Translations under genes and position numbers: made by a program
Source: a virus
Lineage: Duplodnaviria; Heunggongvirae; Uroviricota; Caudoviricetes
Strand: one strand, 5' to 3'
DNA length: 42,479 nt
Virus record (IMG/VR): IMGVR_UViG_2939127364_000002
Shown: positions 1,666-42,479 of the stretch, piece after piece
Layout: every line of letters begins with the position of its first letter
Position numbering within the stretch: the stretch's first letter is position 1
Notes under the pieces: model-generated
Seen by the model: only the letters and a program-made list of their open reading frames with translations
What the model was told of the DNA's origin: nothing
Databases searched by the model: none

Positions 1666-2148
1666 TTATTTGATAAGAAGTGAAGGTTTCCCAACCTTGA
1701 GTTGAGCACCGGGGATATTTATTCCTGCTTTTAGTTGGTGTTTGATTGCCAGTTTGTCGGCTTTAATTGTCGTTTCAAACTCAACGTATTCAGGAGGAAG
1801 GGCGCTTGAGTCGATGATTTCTACAGTTTCTGACGGTTTGCGGATTGTTACCTGGTGAATACCTGCTCGAATCTTTTTCTTGCCAACCATTTCAAGCGAT
1901 GACGCTATATACGCCATAATGCTGTCAATCTTATTTTGAATTACTGCGGCTCTCTCATTTAGTGACTTTGCCTCTTCCTTGAGGCGTTCAGCATAACCAG
2001 ATTCATTTTTAATAATGGCGAGAAGTTGCTCTATTTTATCGGTAAATTCTCCTTCCATGCCTTCTATTGTGTCAGCAATCATCTCTGGCTCTAAATCTGA
2101 ATCCATCAATTTTGCGTATTCATTGGCTATTTCATATAGTTTGCTCAC
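1666..2148 (-). CDS. Recombination-associated protein, resembles Sipho_Gp157 family
   Basis: N-terminus VSKLYEIANEYAKLMD... and position immediately downstream of RecT; start moved to GTG 2148 with GGAGG 6 nt upstream. Confidence 0.45.
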   Translation of the reverse strand: MSKLYEIANEYAKLMDSDLEPEMIADTIEGMEGEFTDKIEQLLAIIKNESGYAERLKEEAKSLNERAAVIQNKIDSIMAYIASSLEMVGKKKIRAGIHQVTIRKPSETVEIIDSSALPPEYVEFETTIKADKLAIKHQLKAGINIPGAQLKVGKPSLLIK

Positions 2149-3043
2149 TGGCAACCTCCAGTTTCGCTTTGCATTCTATGTAAATGGCTTGTACGTTCTG
2201 CTGCAATTTCATTCCAGACGTCAGGCGATATGCTTCTGCAAAATATCGCTTCAAATCATCCATGTTTTCTGCCTGAGCCATTTCATCGCAAAGAAGTTGT
2301 ACTTTATCCATTATTTCCTGCTGGCGTTTCCGTTCATCTTCGCGGATATCTTCCTCTGATTTGTGCGGCATAACTGGTTCAGTCCACACACCTTCTTCTT
2401 CGTTTAGTACGTGAATAGCACTATCAAGACGTGATGCCTTAGGCCAATACTTGCTTGCACGCTTTACGACCGTCTTTCGCGCCATCTCATTCCAGTGATT
2501 TACCCATGGTCCTTTATCGCTGAATGCTGCCTTGCTTGTTTTCCTTACAGCCTCAATTTCAGCCAGACTCATCTCTTCCGTTAGATAATCACCTGCTGGC
2601 ATCTTAACTGTGCAGTAAACGCCAACGATATCACCACGATCACCGAAGGCGTTGTATTTATGGGTTGGTGCTTTATCAAGCCCGTTTGACTCATAGGTAT
2701 CGTTAGCATGAACAAGTTTTGCCTGACCCCATGAGATAACACCAGACTCCATTGCAATATGGAGCAATCCCATATAACTGATATCAAGGCACACCATGCC
2801 GTCGCGCGGAACCAGATAAGCCAGTTTGCTAGCTGGGTTTAAGGTGATGCCGATCGCCGCAACATTGATGATGGCGTTCTGTGCGCTGGTTGGATTTGCC
2901 AGTGCTGTTTTAGCCAGGTAATCGTTTTTCTGGAAATACTGAATTGCAAACTGGCTTTCCTTAGCCCATGTCACCGTCTGTTCAGTCAATGCTCCGCAGA
3001 ATAACTGCTCCTGCTGTTTAACGAATTCAACGATATTGCTCAT
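2132..3043 (-). CDS. recT: RecT-family single-strand annealing recombinase
   Basis: 303-aa ORF of typical RecT size and sequence character; GGAGAA RBS; sits in the recombination slot of the early-left operon. Confidence 0.7.
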   Translation of the reverse strand: MSNIVEFVKQQEQLFCGALTEQTVTWAKESQFAIQYFQKNDYLAKTALANPTSAQNAIINVAAIGITLNPASKLAYLVPRDGMVCLDISYMGLLHIAMESGVISWGQAKLVHANDTYESNGLDKAPTHKYNAFGDRGDIVGVYCTVKMPAGDYLTEEMSLAEIEAVRKTSKAAFSDKGPWVNHWNEMARKTVVKRASKYWPKASRLDSAIHVLNEEEGVWTEPVMPHKSEEDIREDERKRQQEIMDKVQLLCDEMAQAENMDDLKRYFAEAYRLTSGMKLQQNVQAIYIECKAKLEVASEQTI

Positions 3044-4411: not shown

Positions 4412-4774
4412 TTACCTGGCTGTCAGTTGTTTTGATTTCCGGTATCCTGCCGCGTAAATGGCTACGTTTGGAAGACATACACCAGTTTCTGGTTGCTTAT
4501 GTCCAAACTCATTCGCGTACACAATGGCTGCTCTCTCCAGATTGCGTCTGTATTCTTTCTGTTGCCAGATCACGTCCTGTGCCATGAACTTAATTGGCTT
4601 AGCGTCTTCTATGCGCTCAGGCGTTTCGTGAGTACCTTTAGCCTGAATCTGCGCTCTGCTTAGAGTAGGGCGGTGTAATACTTCTGAGCTTGCCGTAATC
4701 TCATTCTGGAGCGCTGCACGACGCTCACGACGACGACCTGATGCTGAGCCATTGAAAGCTGTTCTGCGTGTCAT
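4412..4774 (-). CDS. N: N-like transcription antiterminator
   Basis: Arginine-rich N-terminus ...GRRRERRAALQ... resembles the lambda N arginine-rich motif; first gene left of the oL region; AGGAGG 7 nt upstream of ATG. Confidence 0.65.
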   Translation of the reverse strand: MTRRTAFNGSASGRRRERRAALQNEITASSEVLHRPTLSRAQIQAKGTHETPERIEDAKPIKFMAQDVIWQQKEYRRNLERAAIVYANEFGHKQPETGVCLPNVAIYAAGYRKSKQLTAR

Positions 4775-6370: not shown

Positions 6371-7075
6371 TCACGAATTTTTCAGCCACTCCCTTGCCTC
6401 GATGTCATCCAGATGGCGAGATTGCTTCAGAATACCAGCCACATACTCCACCTTTGCTACTTGATGATAAGGCAACGTTATAGGCCTGTGGTCCTGGTTA
6501 ATGCTTGTAAATTGGTATTCTCCATCTCTGTCATAGCCAAGAACCTTAATCATGTTGTGTCCTTCAACGGTTCTGACAAACACCTCATCACCCGGGAATA
6601 CTTTGGTGTTAGGCTCAATGAGTACATATTCTCCTGATTTTATTCTGGGCCACATGCTGTCTCCTTTCACACGAAGACCAAAGGCATCTGGATCATCGCT
6701 ATAAATTTTGAGCCACCCATCGCGCTCTTCGGTCATCTCGATGGCACCATCAACACCAAGAATTGCCTCACCAACCACGCGCACTAACCCTTTTCTTACC
6801 TGACCGACAAAAGTTAAAGAATCTGAGCATGATGCAATTGGTGTTACATCATGCACCAAATCAAGCCACCCATTAGGTAACCCAAGTGCGGCTTCAAATT
6901 TTCTTGCTAGTTTATCCCCTATGTTTCGAGTGCTTTTTTCACCGGAGACTTGCGTGAGTTGAGAAGGGCTAACCCCAAGCTTATCGGCAAAGCTTGCATT
7001 AGTGTTACCCGCGATTTTTTTATGCTCATCTAGCAAAAACGCTAGATTTGATTTGCGAATATCTTTGTTTTCCAT
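6371..7075 (-). CDS. cI: CI-type prophage repressor (HTH plus S24 LexA-like autopeptidase domain)
   Basis: N-terminal HTH ...SFADKLGVSPSQLTQV...; C-terminal ...GDSMWP... serine-lysine dyad signature; divergent from cro across the operator region. Confidence 0.9.
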   Translation of the reverse strand: MENKDIRKSNLAFLLDEHKKIAGNTNASFADKLGVSPSQLTQVSGEKSTRNIGDKLARKFEAALGLPNGWLDLVHDVTPIASCSDSLTFVGQVRKGLVRVVGEAILGVDGAIEMTEERDGWLKIYSDDPDAFGLRVKGDSMWPRIKSGEYVLIEPNTKVFPGDEVFVRTVEGHNMIKVLGYDRDGEYQFTSINQDHRPITLPYHQVAKVEYVAGILKQSRHLDDIEAREWLKNS

Positions 7076-7100
7076 CCCACAATTTTCCCTCTATTTAGCA

Positions 7101-7180
7101 AATGGATAAATACGCAATATGATAAATTTACATTGCGGTTGATTTATCAAAATGGTAAAGTTATTCTGTATGATAAACGG
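7101..7180. promoter_or_regulatory. oR/pRM/pR operator region
   Basis: TGATAAA at 7120..7126 and 7171..7177, inverted TTTATCA at 7143..7149, GGATAAA at 7104..7110; lies between divergent cI and cro. Confidence 0.55.
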
Positions 7181-7188
7181 AGGCACTA

Positions 7189-7422
7189 ATGAGTAATGAA
7201 CTACTACGCTGGCGAAAAGAGGCTTCTAGTGAGGAATGGAAGCGACTCGCCGCATTAGCGAAAACTTCAGTTGGCTATCTTGACCAGATTGCATATGGAT
7301 TTCGAAGAGCTTCCCCTGATAAAGCGAATGCAATCGAAGAAGCTACTCGTAATTTCACGGGTTATAAACCTGTGAAAAAGGAAAACCTGGTGTTCGTATC
7401 GCGTAGAGCATCGGCAGCATAA
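7189..7422 (+). CDS. cro: Cro-like repressor (77 aa)
   Basis: Small basic protein, first rightward gene after the operators; GGAGG 6 nt upstream of ATG. Confidence 0.75.
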   Translation: MSNELLRWRKEASSEEWKRLAALAKTSVGYLDQIAYGFRRASPDKANAIEEATRNFTGYKPVKKENLVFVSRRASAA

Positions 7423-7887: not shown

Positions 7888-8049
7888 ATGACAAAACGTC
7901 GTAAGAAATACCAGGAAAAAGAAGAGATTCGACACCCTGATTCACCTGAGGGATTAGTGGTAGCCGCAGCAAATAACAGGGCGTTCGCAGAGCGCCTTGT
8001 TGGTGTTTACAGACTAGCCAAAGCAGGAGTGAAACATGGGCGTCGTTAA
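7888..8049 (+). CDS. Hypothetical small basic protein (53 aa)
   Basis: MTKRRKKYQEKEEIRHPDSPEGLVVAAANN... with AGGAG 6 nt upstream; not in the track. Confidence 0.3.
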   Translation: MTKRRKKYQEKEEIRHPDSPEGLVVAAANNRAFAERLVGVYRLAKAGVKHGRR

Positions 8050-8098
8050 ATTAGCTGATTACAGGCATAACCCTGTACAACATCAGGAGGCATCCAGT

Positions 8099-8926
8099 AT
8101 GGGGTATGTCTCTATACACCGCCAGTTTATGGACAGCAGGCTCTATAAGGACTCTCAGGCAGTACATCTTTGGCTTCACTTAATCCTCAAGGCTAATCAC
8201 GAATCTACTGTCGTCAATACGGATATCGGTCCGATAACTGTTGATCGCGGTCAGATGATAACTGGACGCCCGTCGCTGGTCAGAGAAACATTCATCCCCG
8301 ACAACAAAGTTCGGAGCTTATTACGGACTTTTGAGTCGAAAGGTATGCTTAATATTTGCTCGATGGGGAAGAAATTTAGCCTGTTTACAATCGTTAAATA
8401 TGACGATTTTCAGGCAAAAAATTGTCCAACGGTTGTCCAACGGTTGTCCAACGCAAACACCAGTAATGGCGCGGCTCTCAGCGGAGATTGTCCAACGGTT
8501 GTCCAACGGTTGTCCATAAACAATAATATAAATAATATCTCTAATACTGACGTATTAGAGAGTGCCACAGCAGACAAAAAGTCTGACAAGAAAAAACCTT
8601 CCGTTAGCTGTCAGGATGTTGTCGATGCTTACCACGAAATCCTTCCTGAAGCGCCAAGAATCCGCGCACTGAATGACAAGCGTAAAAACCAGATCCGAAC
8701 GTTCTGGCGCAAAGCCGGAGTGATAACCCGCCAGCTTGACGGGCATGGGTTCACGATGCAGGACTGGAGAAATTATTTGAGCTACGTTGGCGAAAATTGC
8801 CGATGGATGTTCGAAGAGCGCCCAAACCATCAACGCGGAACCGTCTGGCACAAAAAGGGATTTGATTTCCTGCTTAACGATAATACCTACCTGAAAGTTC
8901 GTGAGGGTGAACACGATGACCGATAA
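8099..8926 (+). CDS. Replication initiator, O-like
   Basis: Start placed at ATG 8099 (MGYVSIHRQF...) with AGGAGG RBS instead of track start 8036; ori-like iterons lie inside the gene; followed by the helicase gene. Confidence 0.7.
   Translation: MGYVSIHRQFMDSRLYKDSQAVHLWLHLILKANHESTVVNTDIGPITVDRGQMITGRPSLVRETFIPDNKVRSLLRTFESKGMLNICSMGKKFSLFTIVKYDDFQAKNCPTVVQRLSNANTSNGAALSGDCPTVVQRLSINNNINNISNTDVLESATADKKSDKKKPSVSCQDVVDAYHEILPEAPRIRALNDKRKNQIRTFWRKAGVITRQLDGHGFTMQDWRNYLSYVGENCRWMFEERPNHQRGTVWHKKGFDFLLNDNTYLKVREGEHDDR
8422..8517. repeat. Replication origin iterons: two clusters of three tandem 11-bp repeats (TTGTCCAACGG)
   Basis: Copies at 8422..8454 and 8488..8517 (last copy partial), then AT-rich stretch 8515..8560; all inside the O-like gene. 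Confidence 0.7.
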
Positions 8927-10352
8927 TTTTTATGCGCCGCCCCATAGCATCGAGGCAGAGCAGGCGGTGATTGGTGGATTGCTTCTGGATGATGACAGCA
9001 GTGAGCGCGTCCAGAAAGTTCTGGCGATGCTGAAGCCCGATTCATTTTACAGCCGACCACACAAAATCCTTTTCGAAGAAATAACCAGAATGCACCGTGA
9101 GCAAAAGCCAGTAGATGGCCTGACGCTTTTCGATGAACTGGAGCGTAAATCGTTAACGGTGTCTGTTGGCGGTTTTGCTTATATCGCTGAGATCGCAAAG
9201 AACACGCCAAGCGCAGCAAACATCGTTGCCTATGCAATGCAGGTTCGTGAAACCGCAATGGAACGCTACGCCATCAACCGCATGACTGAAGCGACGGAAT
9301 TGCTCTATTCCCGCAACGGAATGACTGCAACGCAGAAGTACGAAGCTATTCAGTCGATTTTCACGCAACTGACAGACCATGCAAAAACCGGATCGCGTCG
9401 CGGCCTTCGCTCATTTGGTGAGGTCATGGAAGACTGGGTTAGCGACCTTGAGAAGCGATTTGACCCGTCAGGCGAACAACGAGGAATGAGCACAGGGATC
9501 CCATCGCTGGACAGGATGCTGTCACCGAAAGGCCTGGTGAAAGGCTCTCTGTTTGTCATTGGCGCTCGCCCTAAGATGGGGAAAACGACGCTATACAGCC
9601 AGATGGCAATCAACTGCGCAGTGCATGAGAAAAAGCCCGCTCTGATGTTCAGCCTTGAAATGCCCGGTGACCAGATACTGGAAAAACTGGTAGGACAGAA
9701 GTCAGGTGTTAACCCGAATATTTTTTACCTTCCGGCGACAAATGACGCTGATGACGGCTATCAGGGTGATTACGATGGTGACTTCAACAGGGCGATCGAA
9801 ACAGCCAATCGCTTGAGTGAAATCGACCTGCTTTACATCGACGACACGCCGGGATTATCTCTGGCTCAAATCGTCAGCGAAAGCCGTCGAATCAAGCGAG
9901 AAAAAGGATGTGTTGGCATGATTCTGGTCGATTACCTGACACTAATGACCGCTGAGAAGGCCGATCGCAACGACCTTGCTTACGGCATGATCACCAAAGG
10001 ACTGAAGAACCTTGCCAAAGAGCTTGATTGCGTTGTTGTGCTTCTGACACAGCTTAACCGCGCACTGGAAAGCCGAACCAATAAACGCCCATTACCAAGT
10101 GACTCACGAGATACAGGGCAGATTGAACAGGATTGCGATTATTGGGTGGGGATCCATCGTGAAGGCGCTTTTGATGACAGTGTTCCACCTGGTGAAACCG
10201 AACTAATCCTTCGTCTCAATCGTCATGGCAATACCGGCACGGTGTATTGCATTCAGGCAAATGGCGCTATTTATGACACAGACCAACAGTCTGCTGAAAT
10301 GCGCCGACGTGAACGCGAGGAACCGCAGTCCAAGAAGAAAGGAGGATTCTGA
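8916..10352 (+). CDS. DnaB-type replicative DNA helicase
   Basis: N-terminus ...FYAPPHSIEAEQAVIGGLLLD...; Walker A GARPKMGKTT; start at ATG 8916 (GAGGGTG RBS) overlapping the O-like gene end. Confidence 0.9.
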   Translation: MTDNFYAPPHSIEAEQAVIGGLLLDDDSSERVQKVLAMLKPDSFYSRPHKILFEEITRMHREQKPVDGLTLFDELERKSLTVSVGGFAYIAEIAKNTPSAANIVAYAMQVRETAMERYAINRMTEATELLYSRNGMTATQKYEAIQSIFTQLTDHAKTGSRRGLRSFGEVMEDWVSDLEKRFDPSGEQRGMSTGIPSLDRMLSPKGLVKGSLFVIGARPKMGKTTLYSQMAINCAVHEKKPALMFSLEMPGDQILEKLVGQKSGVNPNIFYLPATNDADDGYQGDYDGDFNRAIETANRLSEIDLLYIDDTPGLSLAQIVSESRRIKREKGCVGMILVDYLTLMTAEKADRNDLAYGMITKGLKNLAKELDCVVVLLTQLNRALESRTNKRPLPSDSRDTGQIEQDCDYWVGIHREGAFDDSVPPGETELILRLNRHGNTGTVYCIQANGAIYDTDQQSAEMRRREREEPQSKKKGGF

Positions 10353-10455
10353 TGACCATCTACATCACTGAGCTGATAACAGGGTTATCGTTACTAATGG
10401 TTCTTACTGTATATATTATTAAGTATATTCTTTATGCGAATAAAAAAACTAATTG
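10351..10455 (+). CDS. Possible 34-aa hydrophobic peptide
   Basis: MTIYITELITGLSLLMVLTVYIIKYILYANKKTN; AAAGGAGGA 6 nt upstream; ATG overlaps the helicase stop (TGATGA); speculative. Confidence 0.3.
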
Positions 10456-11045
10456 ATCACGATGAGCTTCTGTCAACATTATCATATGACTCAGAAACAG
10501 GAATATTTAAATGGCTAAAAACAAATTCAGTAGTAAGAGTAAAAGGTAGTATTGCTGGAGGTGTTAGTGGTGGTTATATATGCATTAGCATAAATAATGT
10601 TTTGTATTATGCGCATAGACTTGCTTGGTTCTATGTATACAAAAAATGGCCTCCTAAGTTTATTGATCATGTAAATGGGAACAGACTTGACAATAGGATT
10701 TCAAATCTAAGACTGGCAACAGAAGAGCAGAATGCAAGAAACATTGTAGGGAATAGATTAAACACATCCGGTGCAATTGGAGTGTCTTGGTATAAGCCAA
10801 CTGGCAGGTGGAAGTCTTATGTTGGTTATAAAAATAAGACAATATCGTTAGGGTATTTCGACAGCAAAGAAGATGCAGCATTCATAGCAGCACTAGCAAG
10901 AAAGAAACTATATGGAACTTATGCGAGTAAAGCACTTAATTGCGAGCATGAGCTTTTATCTCAATTTAATAATGATGAGGATAAACTTGCGGAATATCTT
11001 AAGGAAAAATCTAAAAGGACTCGAAAGCGTGTTAAAAACAGATAA
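10434..11045 (+). CDS. HNH endonuclease with AP2 DNA-binding domain (homing-endonuclease-like)
   Basis: ...YAHRLAWFYVYKKWPPKFIDHVNGNRLDNRISNLRLATEEQNARN... (HNH) and ...GVSWYKPTGRWKSYVGYKNKTISLGYF... (AP2-like); gene is visibly AT-rich. Confidence 0.75.
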   Translation: MRIKKLIDHDELLSTLSYDSETGIFKWLKTNSVVRVKGSIAGGVSGGYICISINNVLYYAHRLAWFYVYKKWPPKFIDHVNGNRLDNRISNLRLATEEQNARNIVGNRLNTSGAIGVSWYKPTGRWKSYVGYKNKTISLGYFDSKEDAAFIAALARKKLYGTYASKALNCEHELLSQFNNDEDKLAEYLKEKSKRTRKRVKNR

Positions 11046-11076
11046 AGGCCTGCTGGTAATCGCAGGCCTTTTTATT
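11046..11076 (+). terminator. Rho-independent terminator after the HNH-AP2 gene
   Basis: Stem aggcctgc/gcaggcct with 8-nt loop followed by TTTTTATTT. Confidence 0.6.
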
Positions 11077-11105: not shown

Positions 11106-11333
11106 ATGAGTTCGATGACTGAGCTTGTCTGCGCCGACTTTCAGGAGAACATTGGTCGTGCAAAGCGGTACTGGTCTGCTTCCAGACTTCCGACTGGCGA
11201 GAGACAGAAAAACGCCCCTAAGCCACGGATCTATCCGCGCGACCGCGTTCTTCGCCGGTTGGTTAAAATCGATACTGATTTTCAGTGTGACAGAATTATC
11301 CAGCAATTAGATTTGATGACTGATGATGAATGA
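11106..11333 (+). CDS. Hypothetical nin-region protein (75 aa)
   Basis: Track ORF with GGAGG-type RBS; no family recognised. Confidence 0.5.
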   Translation: MSSMTELVCADFQENIGRAKRYWSASRLPTGERQKNAPKPRIYPRDRVLRRLVKIDTDFQCDRIIQQLDLMTDDE

Positions 11334-11748
11334 TTTCATTCTGCACGAAACCAATAAATCACAATTCTGGTTAGTTCTGAAACAAATCCTCTCTACCGGC
11401 AAACGCTGGCGAATCAAAATATCTGAGTACCGTGAGAAGCGTACATTGTCACAAAACAATCTGCTGTGGATGTGGAATGCAGAAATAGCCGCACAGTTAT
11501 CTGCTGCTTCTGCTGAAAACTTCACGCCTGAAGAGGTTCATGAGTGGCTGAAAGATATATTTTGTCCGGCTAAAAGGGTGACGATTTTTAATATTACACG
11601 ATGCGTTAAATCAACACGTCAGCTTGATATTGGAGATATGCACAAATATCTGACCGATATTGACCAGTGGGCGCATCAGAAGGGATTACGACTAACCATT
11701 CCTGATAATTGCGAGTACCGGGATCTAAAGGAGAGGCAAGTAGAGTGA
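11323..11748 (+). CDS. ninB: NinB-like recombination protein
   Basis: ...RTLSQNNLLWMWNAEIA... parallels lambda NinB ...RSLDQNRKLWACLGDVS...; position at the start of the nin region. Confidence 0.75.
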   Translation: MMNDFILHETNKSQFWLVLKQILSTGKRWRIKISEYREKRTLSQNNLLWMWNAEIAAQLSAASAENFTPEEVHEWLKDIFCPAKRVTIFNITRCVKSTRQLDIGDMHKYLTDIDQWAHQKGLRLTIPDNCEYRDLKERQVE

Positions 11749-12272
11749 CTATCAAATCAAATACGCCAGCACACGACAAGGACTGCTGGCAAACGCCGCT
11801 CTGGCTTTTTGATGCACTGGATATTGAGTTTGGATTCTGGCTGGATTCGGCAGCGAGCGACAAAAATGCTCTGTGTGCTCACTGGCTAACTGAGGCCGAC
11901 GACGCGCTCAATTCTGAGTGGGTAAGCCACGGTGCAATCTGGAATAACCCGCCGTACAGCAATATCAGGCCGTGGGTGGAAAAAGCCGCTGAGCAGTGCA
12001 TACAACAGCGACAGACGGTAGTTATGCTTGTGCCAGAGGATATGTCAGTCGGATGGTTCAGCAAGGCTCTGGAGAGTGTTGACGAAGTTCGCATCATCAC
12101 TGATGGACGGATTAATTTTATCGAACCATCGACAGGGCTGGAGAAGAAGGGAAACAGCAAAGGCTCCATGCTGCTGATTTGGCGACCGTTCATCAGTCCT
12201 CGACGGATGTTTACTACCGTATCCAAAGCGGCATTGATGGCGATCGGGCAGGGCGTCAGGAGGGCGGCATGA
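11745..12272 (+). CDS. Phage Dam-like DNA N6-adenine methyltransferase
   Basis: NPPY catalytic motif (...[12 protein letters not shown]...); start placed at GTG 11745 (AAGGAG RBS) overlapping the ninB stop. Confidence 0.8.
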
Positions 12273-12451
12273 GGCGACAGCGACGAAGTATCACCGACAT
12301 CATCTGCGAAAACTGCAAATACCTTCCAACGAAACGCTCCAGAAATAAACGCAAGCCAATCCCAAAAGAATCTGACGTAAAAACCTTCAATTACACGGCT
12401 CACCTGTGGGATATCCGGTGGCTAAGAGAACGTGCGAGGAAAACAAGGTGA
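12269..12451 (+). CDS. Hypothetical small basic protein (60 aa)
   Basis: [30 protein letters not shown]...; AGGAGGG RBS; ATGA overlap with the methyltransferase stop. Confidence 0.4.
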
Positions 12452-13985: not shown

Positions 13986-14170
13986 ACGCCACAATTCAAA
14001 CGATACCAGAGCTTCTTATCCAGACACGAGGCAATCAGACCGAAGTGGCGAGGATGCTTTCCTGTGCAAGAGGAACAGTGCTCAAGTACAACCGAGACAG
14101 CAAAGGTGAGCGTCACGTAATAGTTAACGGCGTCCTGATGGTCAAACAGGGCAAGAGGGGAAGACCATGA
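13982..14170 (+). CDS. ninH: NinH-like protein
   Basis: ...GNQTEVARMLSCARGTVLKY... parallels lambda NinH ...GNQTEVARRLKCSRGTVRKY... Confidence 0.7.
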   Translation: MNATIQTIPELLIQTRGNQTEVARMLSCARGTVLKYNRDSKGERHVIVNGVLMVKQGKRGRP

Positions 14171-14790
14171 GACTCGAAAGCGTAGCTAAATTTCATTCGC
14201 CAAAAAGCCCGATGATGAGCGACTCACCACGGGCTACGGCTTCTGACTCTCTTTCCGGTACCGATGTGATGGCTGCTATGGGGATGGCGCAATCACAAGC
14301 AGGATTCGGAATGGCTGCATTCTGCGGTAAGCACGAACTCAGCCAGAACGACAAACAAAAGGCTATCAACTATCTGATGCAATTTGCACACAAGGTGTCG
14401 GGGAAATACCGTGGTGTGGCAAAGCTCGAAGGAAATACTAAGGCAAAGGTACTGCAAGTGCTCGCAACATTCGCTTATGCGGATTATTGCCGTAGTGCCG
14501 CGACGCCGGGTGCAAGATGCAGAGATTGCCACGGTACTGGCCGGGCCGTTGATATTACCAAAACAGAGCAGTGGGGGAGAGTTGTTGAGAAAGAATGCGG
14601 AAGATGCAAAGGTGTCGGCTATTCAAGAATGCCAGCAAGCGCCGCATATCGCGCTGTAACGATGCTAATCCCAAACCTTACCCAACCCACCTGGTCACGC
14701 ACTGTTAAGCCGCTGTATGACGCTCTGGTGGTGCAATGCCACAAGGAAGAGTCAATTGCAGACAACATTTTGAACGCGGTCACACGTTAG
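14167..14790 (+). CDS. Q: Late-gene antiterminator Q
   Basis: Zinc-finger segment CRDCHGTGRAVDI...CGRCKGVGY typical of Q family; last gene before the late promoter region. Confidence 0.8.
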   Translation: MRLESVAKFHSPKSPMMSDSPRATASDSLSGTDVMAAMGMAQSQAGFGMAAFCGKHELSQNDKQKAINYLMQFAHKVSGKYRGVAKLEGNTKAKVLQVLATFAYADYCRSAATPGARCRDCHGTGRAVDITKTEQWGRVVEKECGRCKGVGYSRMPASAAYRAVTMLIPNLTQPTWSRTVKPLYDALVVQCHKEESIADNILNAVTR

Positions 14791-14861: not shown

Positions 14862-14896
14862 TGACGTCAACGATGGATAAATGCACTCGTTAAGTA

Positions 14897-14930
14897 AAGC
14901 CCTGAGTTAATAGCTCAGGGCTTTTTGCGT
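14897..14930 (+). terminator. Rho-independent terminator (tR-prime equivalent)
   Basis: Stem agccctgag/ctcagggct with 7-nt loop followed by TTTTTGCGTTTT. Confidence 0.6.
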
Positions 14931-17583: not shown

Positions 17584-17934
17584 ATGCCGCCACGAACCCC
17601 AAAAGCCTGCCGTGTTCGCGGTTGCCGCCATACCACAACTGACCCGTCAGGCTATTGCGAAAGCCACAAAAGTGAAGGCTGGAAGCAATACAAGCCAGGA
17701 CAATCCCGTCATCAGCGCGGTTATGGTTCGAAGTGGGACAGTATCCGCGCGGGTGTCCTGAAGCGTGACAAAGGCCTGTGTCAGTTATGTCTGCGTGCTG
17801 GTGTGGTGCGTGAGGCGAAAACCGTTGACCACATCATCCCTAAAGCGCATGGCGGCACTGATGCAGACTGCAATCTGCAGAGCCTGTGCTGGCCGTGTCA
17901 TAAGGCGAAGACGGCCCGTGAACGGCTAAAGTGA
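17584..17934 (+). CDS. HNH endonuclease, packaging-associated
   Basis: Cys-rich N-terminus and ...VDHIIPKAHGGTDADCNLQSLCWPCHKAKT... HNH motif; immediately upstream of the terminase genes. Confidence 0.85.
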   Translation: MPPRTPKACRVRGCRHTTTDPSGYCESHKSEGWKQYKPGQSRHQRGYGSKWDSIRAGVLKRDKGLCQLCLRAGVVREAKTVDHIIPKAHGGTDADCNLQSLCWPCHKAKTARERLK

Positions 17935-18009: not shown

Positions 18010-18059
18010 ATCGTTTTTTTATACCCGCGAAAAATGAAATTTAACCAGGAGTGCCGCAT

Positions 18060-18554
18060 ATGGCTGGAACGGCGGGGCGTTCCGGGCGTCGCCCCAAGCC
18101 AACGGCGCGCAAGGCGCTGGCCGGAAACCCCGGCAAGCGAGCCCTGAACAAAGATGAACCTGTTTTTACGCCCATCAAAGGTGTTGAGCCACCGGAGTGG
18201 TTCGCTGAAGAAGATCTCCCTCTCGCTACAATCATGTGGCAACTGACAACTAAAGAACTCTGCGGTCAGGGCCTGCTGTGCGTGACTGACCTCGCGGTGC
18301 TTGAGCGGTGGTGCGTGGCCTATGAGTTCTGGCGACGTGCCGTGAAAAATATTGCCAGACAGGGCAACACCATCACCGGTGCAATGGGCGGCATGGTCAA
18401 AAATCCGGAGCTGACCGCCAAGAAAGAACAGGAGTCCGAGATGAGCAGCACGGGGGCAATGCTCGGACTCGACCCCAGCAGCCGCCAGCGTCTGATTGGC
18501 CTGGCGGGGAAGAAGAAAGCCACTAACCCGTTTCTGAAAATCATCGAATCATGA
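18060..18554 (+). CDS. Terminase small subunit (P27-like)
   Basis: [34 protein letters not shown]... typical P27-family N-terminus; AGGAG RBS; ATGA overlap with the large subunit. Confidence 0.8.
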
Positions 18555-23617: not shown

Positions 23618-23806
23618 ATGATCCTGAAACAAGATCTGAAATGGTCACCGGACGGTATGCGCGTTGAGATCATTCGTGCTGGTGAGTATGAAGATAAAGA
23701 ATTACCCGAACGGGTACGTGAAATTGCCACTGCAGCAGGGATTGTTTCTGATAAGAGAACACCTGTTGCACGGGTATCTGATAAGGCTAAAAAACAGCAT
23801 TCATAG
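23618..23806 (+). CDS. Hypothetical head-region protein (62 aa)
   Basis: Track ORF with plausible RBS; no family recognised. Confidence 0.4.
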   Translation: MILKQDLKWSPDGMRVEIIRAGEYEDKELPERVREIATAAGIVSDKRTPVARVSDKAKKQHS

Positions 23807-24132: not shown

Positions 24133-24471
24133 ATGCAGGCAGGAAGATTACGTGATCGCGTGGTTATTCTGAATATTACGACCTCCCGTACCCCTTCAGG
24201 TCACCCGGAGGAAACCCTGAAAGAGGGGGCTACGGTATGGGCAGAGGTTAAGGGGATCAGTGGGCGGGAACGTATATCGGGCGGTGCGGAAACCGCGCAG
24301 ACAACAGTAAGAGTCTGGATGCGATTTCGGCGCGATGTGACGGCCGCCTCACGTCTGAAAGTGCTGACCGGGGCATTCAAGGGAGCCATTCTGAATATCG
24401 ACGGGCCGCCGATCCCGGACGCACGATCCTCCAGGCTTGAAATACTTTGCAGCCAGAGAGGTGGAATGTGA
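24133..24471 (+). CDS. Head-tail adaptor / head closure protein
   Basis: MQAGRLRDRVVILN... N-terminus typical of head-tail adaptor family; AGGAGG RBS. Confidence 0.7.
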   Translation: MQAGRLRDRVVILNITTSRTPSGHPEETLKEGATVWAEVKGISGRERISGGAETAQTTVRVWMRFRRDVTAASRLKVLTGAFKGAILNIDGPPIPDARSSRLEILCSQRGGM

Positions 24472-24917
24472 CGGATTTTAGTCTGGATTTTTCTGGCCTG
24501 GCGGATATTGCAAGAGATCTGGAACTTCTCAGCAGAGCAGAGAGTAATAAGGTGCTTCGCGATGCCTCCCGTGCCGGTGCAGAGGTTATCCGGGGGGCGG
24601 TTATTGACCATGCGCCAGAGCGAACCGGAAAACTGAAGAAAAATGTGGTTATTCTGACTCAGCGTTCAAAGCGTCGGGGGGAAATTATCTCGGGTGTCCA
24701 CATTCGTGGACGGAACCTGCGGACCGGAAACAGTGATAACAGCATGAAAGCCAGTGATCCCCGAAATGCGTTTTACTGGCGCTTTGTGGAGCTGGGAACG
24801 ATAAACATGCCCGCGCATCCGTTCATTCGCCCGGCTTTCGATACGACAGAGGAACTGGCAGCACAGATTGCCATACAGCGAATGAATCAGGCTATTGATG
24901 AGGTCTTAAGTAAATGA
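24468..24917 (+). CDS. Neck/tail-completion protein (HK97 gp10-like)
   Basis: Start at GTG 24468 overlapping the upstream stop (GTGA); family call from order and sequence character. Confidence 0.6.
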   Translation: MTDFSLDFSGLADIARDLELLSRAESNKVLRDASRAGAEVIRGAVIDHAPERTGKLKKNVVILTQRSKRRGEIISGVHIRGRNLRTGNSDNSMKASDPRNAFYWRFVELGTINMPAHPFIRPAFDTTEELAAQIAIQRMNQAIDEVLSK

Positions 24918-40077: not shown

Positions 40078-41235
40078 CTATGACACCTTCTCATCAAGCC
40101 AATCCGCCCACCACTGCATCATTTCTCTGCGCTTATCGAGATACTGAGCATGGTTGTAAATTCCACGTACAGATCCGCCGTTGGCATGTGCCAGTTGCAC
40201 TTCAATGGCGTCGGCAGGCCATTCGTGCTCGTTCATAATCGTGCTGAATTCATGCCTGAATCCGTGACCGCTTTCCAGACCTTCATAGCCGATTTGTTTG
40301 ATCACAAGCAATACCGCGTTCTCGCAGATTGGCTTCTTCTTATCGTTGCGCCCGGCAAAAACAAACTCTGAGACTGGTTTGGTGATTGAGCTTAGCGTAG
40401 TGAGAAGTTCAACCACCTGGTCTGACATCGGGACCACATGAATTTTGCGTCCCTTCATCACACTGGCGTCGATGGTGATAATCCTGTTTTCAAAATCGAC
40501 GTTCTTCCATAGCATGGAACGAAGCTCTTTCGTTCTTAGGGCTGTATAACGTAAAACTTTTGTCGCAATGAGCGATACGATACTTCCTGAAAATGTTGCC
40601 AGTGCTTTGTTGAATGCAGGGATCTGGTCTGCTGGAAGGAACGGGAAGTTCTTCTTGCGGTATCCCTTCATGGCGTCAGCAAGGTCAGGTGCCGGGTTAT
40701 ATTTAGCCCTACCAGTGACAATAGCGTAACGGAAAACCTCGCCGCATCTTCTGCGGGCTTTGTTGGCTCGCTCCATTGCACCGCGATCTTCAAATCTGCG
40801 GATTACTTCCAGCAGTTGCATCGGCTCAATATCCTGAATTTCAAGGCCGCCGATGATGGGTAAAATGTCGTCATCAAACATTTTTGCAAGTTCATTTGCA
40901 TAGCCTACTGACCAGACTTGCTTCTTGTGCTCGTACCATTCCTTGTAAATGGCGCTAAAGGAATTGTTGTTAGACGAAGTCTTTTTCGCTTTTACCGGAT
41001 CGATACCAACCGAGATGTCTTTCCTCGCGGTCCATGCTTTATCCCTTGCCTCCTGCAAAGTCATAAGCGGATATTTTCCGACGGTCAGGATTTTCTCCTT
41101 ACCGTCAATCTTGTAGCGAAGCTGCCATACCTTTTTCCCGGATACAGGAACATAAAGGTACAGGCCATTACCATCGAGAAGGCGGTATGGTTTTTCTTTC
41201 GGCTTTGCTGCTTCAATCTGCTTAACGGTGAGCAT
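40078..41235 (-). CDS. intS: Tyrosine integrase, IntS-like
   Basis: MLTVKQIEAAKPKEKPYRLLDGNGLYLYV... recognised as the CPS-53/KplE1 integrase; start placed at ATG 41235 rather than track start 41271; adjacent to argW. Confidence 0.9.
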   Translation of the reverse strand: MLTVKQIEAAKPKEKPYRLLDGNGLYLYVPVSGKKVWQLRYKIDGKEKILTVGKYPLMTLQEARDKAWTARKDISVGIDPVKAKKTSSNNNSFSAIYKEWYEHKKQVWSVGYANELAKMFDDDILPIIGGLEIQDIEPMQLLEVIRRFEDRGAMERANKARRRCGEVFRYAIVTGRAKYNPAPDLADAMKGYRKKNFPFLPADQIPAFNKALATFSGSIVSLIATKVLRYTALRTKELRSMLWKNVDFENRIITIDASVMKGRKIHVVPMSDQVVELLTTLSSITKPVSEFVFAGRNDKKKPICENAVLLVIKQIGYEGLESGHGFRHEFSTIMNEHEWPADAIEVQLAHANGGSVRGIYNHAQYLDKRREMMQWWADWLDEKVS

Positions 41236-41281
41236 GGGTAAAAATCCGGTGGGTAAAATTATTTTATCCACTTTTTACCCG
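41236..41281. promoter_or_regulatory. Cluster of GGGTAAAA / TTTTACCC 8-mers upstream of intS (candidate recombination-protein binding sites)
   Basis: GGGTAAAA at 41236..41243 and 41251..41258, inverted TTTTACCC at 41273..41280. Confidence 0.35.
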
Positions 41282-41396
41282 TCATGGAGTGCGGCTGTCA
41301 ACGATCTGACGCGAACCATGACGAACCGTGAATATACGGAAGGCTTGATATTCAGGGGATTTTGCGGACTGGTACGGATGGGAGCGAACTGATAAA

Positions 41397-41471
41397 TGGT
41401 GTCCCCTGCAGGAATCGAACCTGCAATTAGCCCTTAGGAGGGGCTCGTTATATCCATTTAACTAAGAGGAC
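41397..41471 (-). tRNA. argW: tRNA-Arg (anticodon CCU)
   Basis: 75-nt cloverleaf GTCCTCTTAGTTAAATGGATATAACGAGCCCCTCCTAAGGGCTAATTGCAGGTTCGATTCCTGCAGGGGACACCA with anticodon CCT and encoded CCA. Confidence 0.9.
41411..41426. repeat. att core copy within the argW T-arm
   Basis: Exact 16-bp match to 221..236. Confidence 0.6.
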
Positions 41472-41546
41472 AATGCGGCATGAGTATACCCGCTAATGGA
41501 GTGCGGGGTAAGTACGCTGCCGCTCGATTGCTTAAACCCTCGCCAT

Positions 41547-42479
41547 TTATGCCGGGTTTTTATAATTTTTCTTAATGTTTTCCGCACGTTCTGCTTTTTG
41601 GCGTGCTTCTGCTTTACGCTTATTGCTCATGTCGTTACGAATCTGTGCATGACTCATTAACGCGAAGATAAAGGTGCCGCCGCAGATGTTCCCCGCTAAA
41701 GTAGGTAGTGCGAAGGGCCAGATGAAATCGCTCCAGTGCAGCGTACCGTTAAACACCAGATAGAGGATTTCAACAGAACCGACCACGATATGGGTGGTGT
41801 CACCCAGGGCAATAAGCCAGGTCATCAATATAATCACCACAATCTTTGCCGCACCCGCTGCAGGAAACATCCAAACCATAGTGGCGATCAGCCAGCCGGA
41901 AATGATCGCGTTGGCAAACATCTCGCTGGGGGTGTTTTTCATCACATCCATGCCGATTTTGACAAATGCATCGCGAGTTTCTTCATTGAAGATAGGCATA
42001 TATTCAAATGCCCACGCCGCAATACCTGTCCCGAGAATATTACCCAGCAGCACGACGCCCCATAACCGTATAAGTAAGCCGACGTTGCTCATTGTCGGTT
42101 TTTGCATGACGGGTAGTACCGCAGTCACGGTATTTTCGGTAAATAATTGCTGGCGGGCCATAATGACGATAATAAAACCAAAGGTATAACCGAGATTCTC
42201 CAGCAAGAAGCTGCCCGGCACACCTTCCAGTTCGACTTGAAATATCCCTTTTGCCAGTAACGAAGCGCCCATCGACAGACCCGCCGCAATGGCTGACCAC
42301 AGTAGCGCCACTGCGTCGCGTTCCAGCTCTTTTTCACCATCCTGGCGGATATGCTCATGAATTGCCATCGCCCGGGAGGGGAGTCGGTCTTCATCTATTT
42401 CTATTTTTTTGCCGCGCTCTTTTTCTTCGCTCTCAACTTCAATTTCGTCGCTGTGTTGATCAATTTTGTCGTTGTCCAT
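41547..42479 (-). CDS. yfdC: Inner-membrane formate/nitrite-transporter-family protein
   Basis: 310-aa ORF MDNDKIDQHSDEIEVESEEKERGKKIEIDEDR... recognised as YfdC, the gene next to argW in E. coli; its start codon is the last 3 bases of the window. Confidence 0.85.
   Translation of the reverse strand: MDNDKIDQHSDEIEVESEEKERGKKIEIDEDRLPSRAMAIHEHIRQDGEKELERDAVALLWSAIAAGLSMGASLLAKGIFQVELEGVPGSFLLENLGYTFGFIIVIMARQQLFTENTVTAVLPVMQKPTMSNVGLLIRLWGVVLLGNILGTGIAAWAFEYMPIFNEETRDAFVKIGMDVMKNTPSEMFANAIISGWLIATMVWMFPAAGAAKIVVIILMTWLIALGDTTHIVVGSVEILYLVFNGTLHWSDFIWPFALPTLAGNICGGTFIFALMSHAQIRNDMSNKRKAEARQKAERAENIKKNYKNPA

Follow-up and report, generated by a model that had tools for sequence, protein, structure and literature searches.

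A lambdoid prophage nin region encodes an orphan DNA adenine methyltransferase identical to the reported GATC methyltransferase M.EcoVT2Dam

The Dam enzymes of the lytic phage T1 (M.T1), of the P2-like Haemophilus phage HP1 (Orf13) and of VT2-Sakai belong to a single family of phage N6-adenine methyltransferases (Pfam PF05869, NCBIfam TIGR01712), and all are orphan phage enzymes. The VT2-Sakai member, M.EcoVT2Dam, was reportedly cloned by Radlinska and Bujnicki in 2001. A later paper, citing Radlinska and Bujnicki 2001, gives GATC as its known target (PMC6602927), and another counts it among the phage Dam enzymes, whose role "is still not well understood" (PMC7556043). In a STEC strain with two extra M.EcoVT2Dam homologues, GATC alone was predicted as their target, and the specific CRARCAG motif of the same strain was assigned to a different enzyme (PMC6602927). 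Further copies have been reported in Phi24B, Min27 and the 933W-group phages. PamA, a comparable orphan enzyme from the S. aureus prophage mPhi11, has NPPY as its active site and methylates GATC (PMC12435837); the gene described here has the same motif and the same reported target.

We analyzed a 42,479-nt stretch of DNA over its full length (hereafter the window) and asked how its own phage dam gene compares with these systems. The initial annotation had placed an N6-adenine methyltransferase with an NPPY motif at 11745–12272, and we found an intact, full-length reading frame at exactly these coordinates. The gene and its main elements are listed below; conservation refers to an alignment of 38 homologues.

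11745–12272, plus strand: dam, phage N6-adenine DNA methyltransferase (528 nt, 175 codons plus stop, GTG start)
11729–11736, plus strand: Shine-Dalgarno-like AGGAGAGG, 8 nt 5' of the GTG and within the end of ninB, as read from the sequence
11781–11798, plus strand: D-x-W-Q-T-P, residues 13–18 (T17 and P18 invariant; D13, W15 and Q16 at least 90% conserved)
11835–11852, plus strand: F-x-L-D-x-A, residues 31–36 (FWLDSA), first Rossmann beta-strand
11946–11957, plus strand: catalytic motif IV, NPPY, residues 68–71 (N68, P69, P70 and Y71 invariant)

A 528-nt CDS is annotated at the same position in HK97 and VT2-Sakai, and VT2-Sakai has ATG where the window has GTG; a longer TTG-initiated ORF from 11709 is therefore unlikely to be the gene. 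The GTG in place of the VT2-Sakai ATG may lower translation. The dam start lies within the ninB stop codon (a GTGA overlap), and the dam stop overlaps the ATG of ninE at 12269 (an ATGA overlap); both overlaps suggest that dam is translationally coupled to its neighbors. An antisense ORF of 174 aa (11879–12403, minus strand) runs over almost all of dam but had no Pfam or PADLOC match, and we treated it as a shadow ORF. One GATC (11722) lies a few bases 5' of the Shine-Dalgarno-like run.

The protein matched PF05869 ("DNA N-6-adenine-methyltransferase (Dam)") with an E value of 6.4e-65 and 218 bits (cutoff 28.1), across profile positions 1–167 of 169, and the NCBIfam equivalog TIGR01712 ("phage N-6-adenine-methyltransferase") with 266 bits (cutoff 97.05), across the complete profile (1–165 of 165). 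These full-length matches above the curated cutoffs assign it to the T1/HP1/VT2 phage Dam family, far beyond chance as judged by sequence, and together with NPPY at residues 68–71 they agree with the earlier description of the enzyme. It was also matched by PHROG phrog_111 ("DNA methyltransferase"; E 8.6e-88) and by the PADLOC orphan-methyltransferase (oMTase) models (E 3.6e-19). All 45 positions that are invariant in the 38-homologue alignment are intact in the window protein; within them and around them, WQTP (15–18), FWLDSA (31–36) and NPPY are unbroken, with each position either invariant or at least 90% conserved. F-x-L-D-x-A is probably the equivalent of AdoMet-binding motif I.

Next, we compared the gene with its closest described relatives. 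The protein is identical, at the same length, to VT2-Sakai Dam (BAA94133.1, M.EcoVT2Dam), and the two genes differ at 6 of 528 nt, namely at the start codon (GTG versus ATG) and at five synonymous third-position sites. Because the proteins are identical, the window enzyme would be expected to produce m6A at GATC, as reported for M.EcoVT2Dam. The ninB-dam-ninE arrangement is also the same in VT2-Sakai, whereas the prophages differ: the one in the window is an HK97/HK022/mEp-like mosaic without stx and is not a Sakai-type Stx phage. The HK97 DNA methyltransferase (HK97p49, NP_037744.1) differs at two residues (V60I and A162S) and occupies the same place between ninB and ninE, but HK97, unlike the window, has no HNH_3/AP2 gene 5' of ninB. 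T1 and HP1 Dam are distant in sequence and sit in other genomic contexts, and their likeness is known through the family and through record annotation; HP1 Orf13 and T1 M.T1 are named as similar in the annotation of VT2-Sakai. Across more than 90% of the window protein, T1-like phages were ∼31% identical by tblastn, and 37% identity was seen with the dam of Pasteurella phage F108; the dam gene of Staphylococcus phage 80 is 34% identical to the window protein. The gene is already known, a very common and experimentally characterized phage gene that an NCBI equivalog model assigns as a matter of routine.

We found no significant sequence match to the protein among solved structures, and therefore turned to a predicted model. 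The AlphaFold2 model (38 homologues) was confident (pLDDT 88.5, pTM 0.86) and was predicted to be a single alpha/beta Rossmann-type domain of the class I AdoMet-dependent methyltransferases, with NPPY following strand E64–68. Comparison of the model with known folds gave the following scores.

PCIF1/CAPAM, cap N6-adenosine methyltransferase: 10.5
M.TaqI: 9.8
M.BseCI: 9.3
MmeI: 9.0
CamA: 8.9
E. coli Dam: 8.1
DpnM: 7.4
T4 Dam: 7.4
Type I HsdM subunits: 7.2–8.7

Foldseek agreed, with a PCIF1 match at E 6e-5. The predicted fold is that of a minimal N6-adenine methyltransferase of the Rossmann type, with PCIF1 and M.TaqI as its nearest counterparts. The strand bearing the invariant F31-x-L33-D34-x-A36 precedes NPPY, which is the gamma-class order. 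However, PCIF1/CAPAM and the gamma-class enzymes (M.TaqI, M.BseCI, CamA and Type I HsdM) share only 14–17% identity with phage Dam, and they carry large extra substrate-recognition domains that are all missing from it; the substrate of PCIF1 is, moreover, capped RNA. The 175-aa model has no separate target-recognition domain and is essentially the catalytic Rossmann domain alone. E. coli Dam, T4 Dam and DpnM (PF02086) have in common with phage Dam the reported GATC target, the m6A product, an xPPY motif and the Rossmann core, but these three host-type enzymes aligned with the model over only ∼107 residues, and the protein had no match to PF02086 (MethyltransfD12, alpha-class). The term "Dam-like" thus fits the reported target of the protein, but there is no homology to host Dam.

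The surrounding DNA is a lambdoid prophage. Its landmarks are listed in order along the window.

2132–3043, minus strand: RecT
4412–4774, minus strand: N antiterminator (PF25694 N_peptide, E 3.5e-20; arginine-rich RRRERRAA motif)
6371–7075, minus strand: cI-like repressor
7095–7123, plus strand: candidate pR-like promoter in the cI-cro interval (TTAGCA-17-TATGAT, a consensus match)
7189–7422: cro, followed by cII
8036–8926: O
8901–10352: P, DnaB-type
10434–11045: HNH_3+AP2 gene
11044–11071, both strands: candidate tR2-like terminator hairpin (perfect 10-bp stem, 6 GC pairs, T-runs on both strands)
11323–11748, plus strand: ninB/orf-like gene (18 bits to NinB Pfam, below the cutoff of 23.8; its relatives here are annotated NinB/Orf)
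12269–12451, plus strand: ninE (PF05322 NinE, E 3.2e-43)
14167–14790: Q
14896–14924: strong terminator-like hairpin after Q
40078–41271, minus strand: intS integrase
41397–41471, minus strand: argW tRNA-Arg(CCT)
41547–42479, minus strand: yfdC-like formate/nitrite-transporter-family gene

The nin region runs in the order DUF7301 ORF, ninB, dam, ninE, ninF, roi/ANT, ybcO, rusA and Q, so that the earlier placement of the gene in a nin region holds: NinE and then NinF (E 3e-13) lie directly downstream, ahead of Roi/ANT, YbcO, RusA and Q. The ninB-like ORF is, from its sequence and the annotation of its relatives, a diverged NinB variant. The hairpin at 11044–11071, a candidate bidirectional terminator, separates the P/HNH genes from the nin genes, and transcription would presumably depend on N to pass it and enter the nin region. 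Its first two bases are the final two of the HNH stop codon, ∼250 nt 5' of ninB. Beyond Q follow lysis genes, head genes of the HK97 type and tail genes of the lambda type. In the early region, segments like those of HK97, HK022, mEp506 and HK140 are patched together, and because of this mosaicism no single annotated record covered at least 80% of the first 25 kb of the window. The right end (40078–42479) is E. coli chromosome, with intS, argW and yfdC, which puts the lambdoid prophage directly beside the argW/CPS-53 site. There, intS adjoins the tail-fiber end and not the Ea22/RecT end, which suggests that it belongs to a neighboring element or marks an unusual junction.

To look for a nuclease partner, we scanned 81 window ORFs with PADLOC (all those reaching 100 aa on either strand, together with three shorter genes of the nin region). 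At PADLOC sensitivity, no restriction enzyme partner was found among them. Beyond the methyltransferase itself, the matches trace to two proteins. The 116-aa HNH protein at 17584–17934, the sole window ORF to touch a PADLOC restriction-enzyme model, gave weak generic HNH matches to five unrelated defense models (best REase_II, E 1.8e-5); it lies directly 5' of the terminase small subunit gene (18051–18554), and we take it most likely to be the packaging-associated HNH protein typical of HK97-like phages. The other, the 203-aa product of the HNH_3+AP2 gene (10434–11045), matched a homing-endonuclease model only (E 7.6e-4), and we rejected it as a partner because it is absent from this site in HK97 and in the E. 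coli LZYWN_4 prophage, which carries the same dam. Lodged 3' of the DnaB-type P gene and ahead of the terminator hairpin, and present in HK140-like phages, this gene looks like a mobile insertion. The neighbors of dam are the well-known nin genes encoding NinB, NinE, NinF, Roi, YbcO and RusA. With generic HNH and homing-endonuclease matches as the only other hits, the initial view of an orphan enzyme with no adjacent restriction enzyme gene is upheld.

We then considered when the gene would be expressed. A consensus scan found no plus-strand promoter-like site between 8527 and 14833. Because dam has no promoter-like site of its own, lies behind a hairpin in a prophage that encodes N, and is coupled to its neighbors, it is probably a delayed-early lytic gene. 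Transcription would start at pR and run through the delayed-early genes (cro-cII-O-P-...-ninB-dam-ninE-...-Q), reaching dam when N overrides the hairpin 5' of ninB, so that the enzyme would appear after infection or prophage induction; in a stable, repressed lysogen the gene would be silent. The Phi24B dam (CM2), whose product is reported to match the VT2-Sakai protein at 100% identity, showed a significant change when norfloxacin was used for induction, and was one of four CMAT genes with a lytic-cycle-linked pattern (PMC3342100).

As to what the enzyme would do, the window contains 132 GATC sites, with an observed/expected ratio between 0.61 (Markov) and 0.80 (base composition). Of the 4-nt palindromes there, only CTAG and GGCC are more depleted than GATC; this avoidance is mild and says little, and since GATC is not strongly avoided, there are plenty of sites to methylate. 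The host makes little Dam, and lambda DNA grown in Dam+ cells is methylated at only part of its GATC sites. During fast phage replication, the phage enzyme would most likely supplement this limited host Dam, so that the 132 sites would be fully methylated in progeny DNA, which would then resist MboI/DpnII-type GATC cutters and offer no substrate to MutH. Taken together, we consider it highly probable that dam encodes a lambdoid-phage GATC N6-adenine methyltransferase with no partner nuclease, expressed as a pR delayed-early gene, that tops up host Dam methylation. The GATC specificity and the induction-linked expression come from the literature, and the biological benefit is what we infer; the analysis itself established the gene, its motifs and fold class, the protein identity with VT2-Sakai Dam, the orphan status and the place in the operon. 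Clusters of three GATC sites in less than 120 bp were seen in head and tail genes, at 23620–23668, 24411–24516, 29885–29975 and 30349–30389.

A different benefit has been suggested for the lysogen, in which prophage Dam would alter host expression through extra methylation of GATC sites that are otherwise protected, or would back up host Dam and so stabilize lysogeny; Murphy et al. reportedly found in 2008 that stable 933W lysogeny requires host Dam. Of the two roles named in the initial annotation, a change of host expression in lysogens is the weaker candidate here; we regard action in the lysogen as decidedly unlikely. S. aureus is not known to have a Dam enzyme, so there methylated GATC introduces an epigenetic mark with a phenotypic effect, whereas in E. 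coli GATC is already methylated by the host and the mark would be redundant. PamA, a GATC-specific prophage enzyme with NPPY, does change the transcriptional program and the virulence of S. aureus (PMC12435837; PMC13076061), but even PamA gave minimal methylation in vitro from the uninduced prophage (PMC12435837). The Phi24B authors raised a possible supplementary role of phage Dam in lysogens, and the dam product was detected in Phi24B lysogen cultures by CMAT; however, the Phi24B qPCR pattern is lytic-linked (PMC3342100), and the CMAT detection would therefore be explained by spontaneous induction. The position of dam in a repressed pR operon, behind a hairpin and with no promoter-like site of its own, argues in the same direction. 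Because GATC is the host's own Dam motif and lysogens probably do not express the gene, a methylome comparison of lysogen and cured strain, as once proposed for this gene, would be expected to yield no new motif, and such an outcome would be no refutation. It is also conceivable, though unlikely, that dam is kept near the recombination genes ninB/orf, ybcO and rusA for mosaicism and not for anti-restriction. Full GATC methylation would deny MutH its nicking sites and turn off mismatch-repair anti-recombination, allowing homeologous exchange between diverged lambdoid phages, from which mosaic genomes such as the present one would arise; this idea draws on gene position, the reported GATC target and established MutH biology.

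Two further accounts concern the enzyme itself. At phage-level expression it might also methylate non-GATC adenines and so shield the DNA against several restriction systems, as might be imagined for a 175-aa protein that is little more than a catalytic Rossmann domain where relatives such as M.TaqI carry large DNA-recognition domains. Other phage adenine methyltransferases are indeed non-specific (PMC3299994; PMC7556043), but they belong to other families. Hia5 and its relatives form a separate subfamily, which we set apart by its description (PMC3299994), and the group of PhiOS31_p25 and phiP27 L24 (Serratia, Aeromonas and phiP27 phages) was rejected as a match: the phiP27 enzyme (NP_543076.1) is an unrelated 352-aa protein that reached E 0.15 by BLASTP, with only xPPY aligned. 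The identical VT2-Sakai enzyme is reported as GATC-specific, and SMRT sequencing of strains with 99%-identical copies attributed no unassigned motif to them (PMC6602927), although the prophage gene was perhaps unexpressed in those cultures. A broader or different specificity is accordingly very improbable. We give almost no credence to the notion that dam is a decaying passenger gene with no current function. The GTG where VT2-Sakai has ATG, the truncated and fused versions of dam in the database and the embedding of the prophage in a chromosome could be read that way; yet GTG is a normal bacterial start and is preceded by the Shine-Dalgarno-like run 8 nt 5', the frame is full-length with all 45 invariant positions intact, all five differences from VT2-Sakai other than the start codon are synonymous, and dam retains its coupling overlap at both the ninB and the ninE junction. 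Topping up of host Dam methylation in the lytic cycle remains our preferred reading.

Lastly, we surveyed the distribution of the gene. Among 5426 complete E. coli genomes, 1565 (about 29%) carried dam at 95% DNA identity or more, and NinB and NinE flanked it in 14 of the best 15 E. coli matches. A tblastn search of 50,697 phage records returned a dam match in 1908, of which 201 were at least 99% identical; 244 phage records carried dam at 95% protein identity or more. Several matches were 100% identical, both VT2-Sakai records ("dam") among them. Protein clusters named "phage N-6-adenine-methyltransferase", with thousands of members, extend across Enterobacterales. The protein database also holds truncated versions of dam, as well as fusions of Dam with NinE, RusA, NinB and other phage domains at 95–100% identity (P0002, P0005, P0011, P0013 and P0022), which are probably frameshifts, recombination junctions or gene-calling artifacts in other prophages. 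The closest DNA match (99.6%) was in E. coli XH992 (NZ_CP019392.1, 4835767–4836294), where the copy adjoins a "phosphoadenosine phosphosulfate reductase family protein" gene rather than ninB and ninE.
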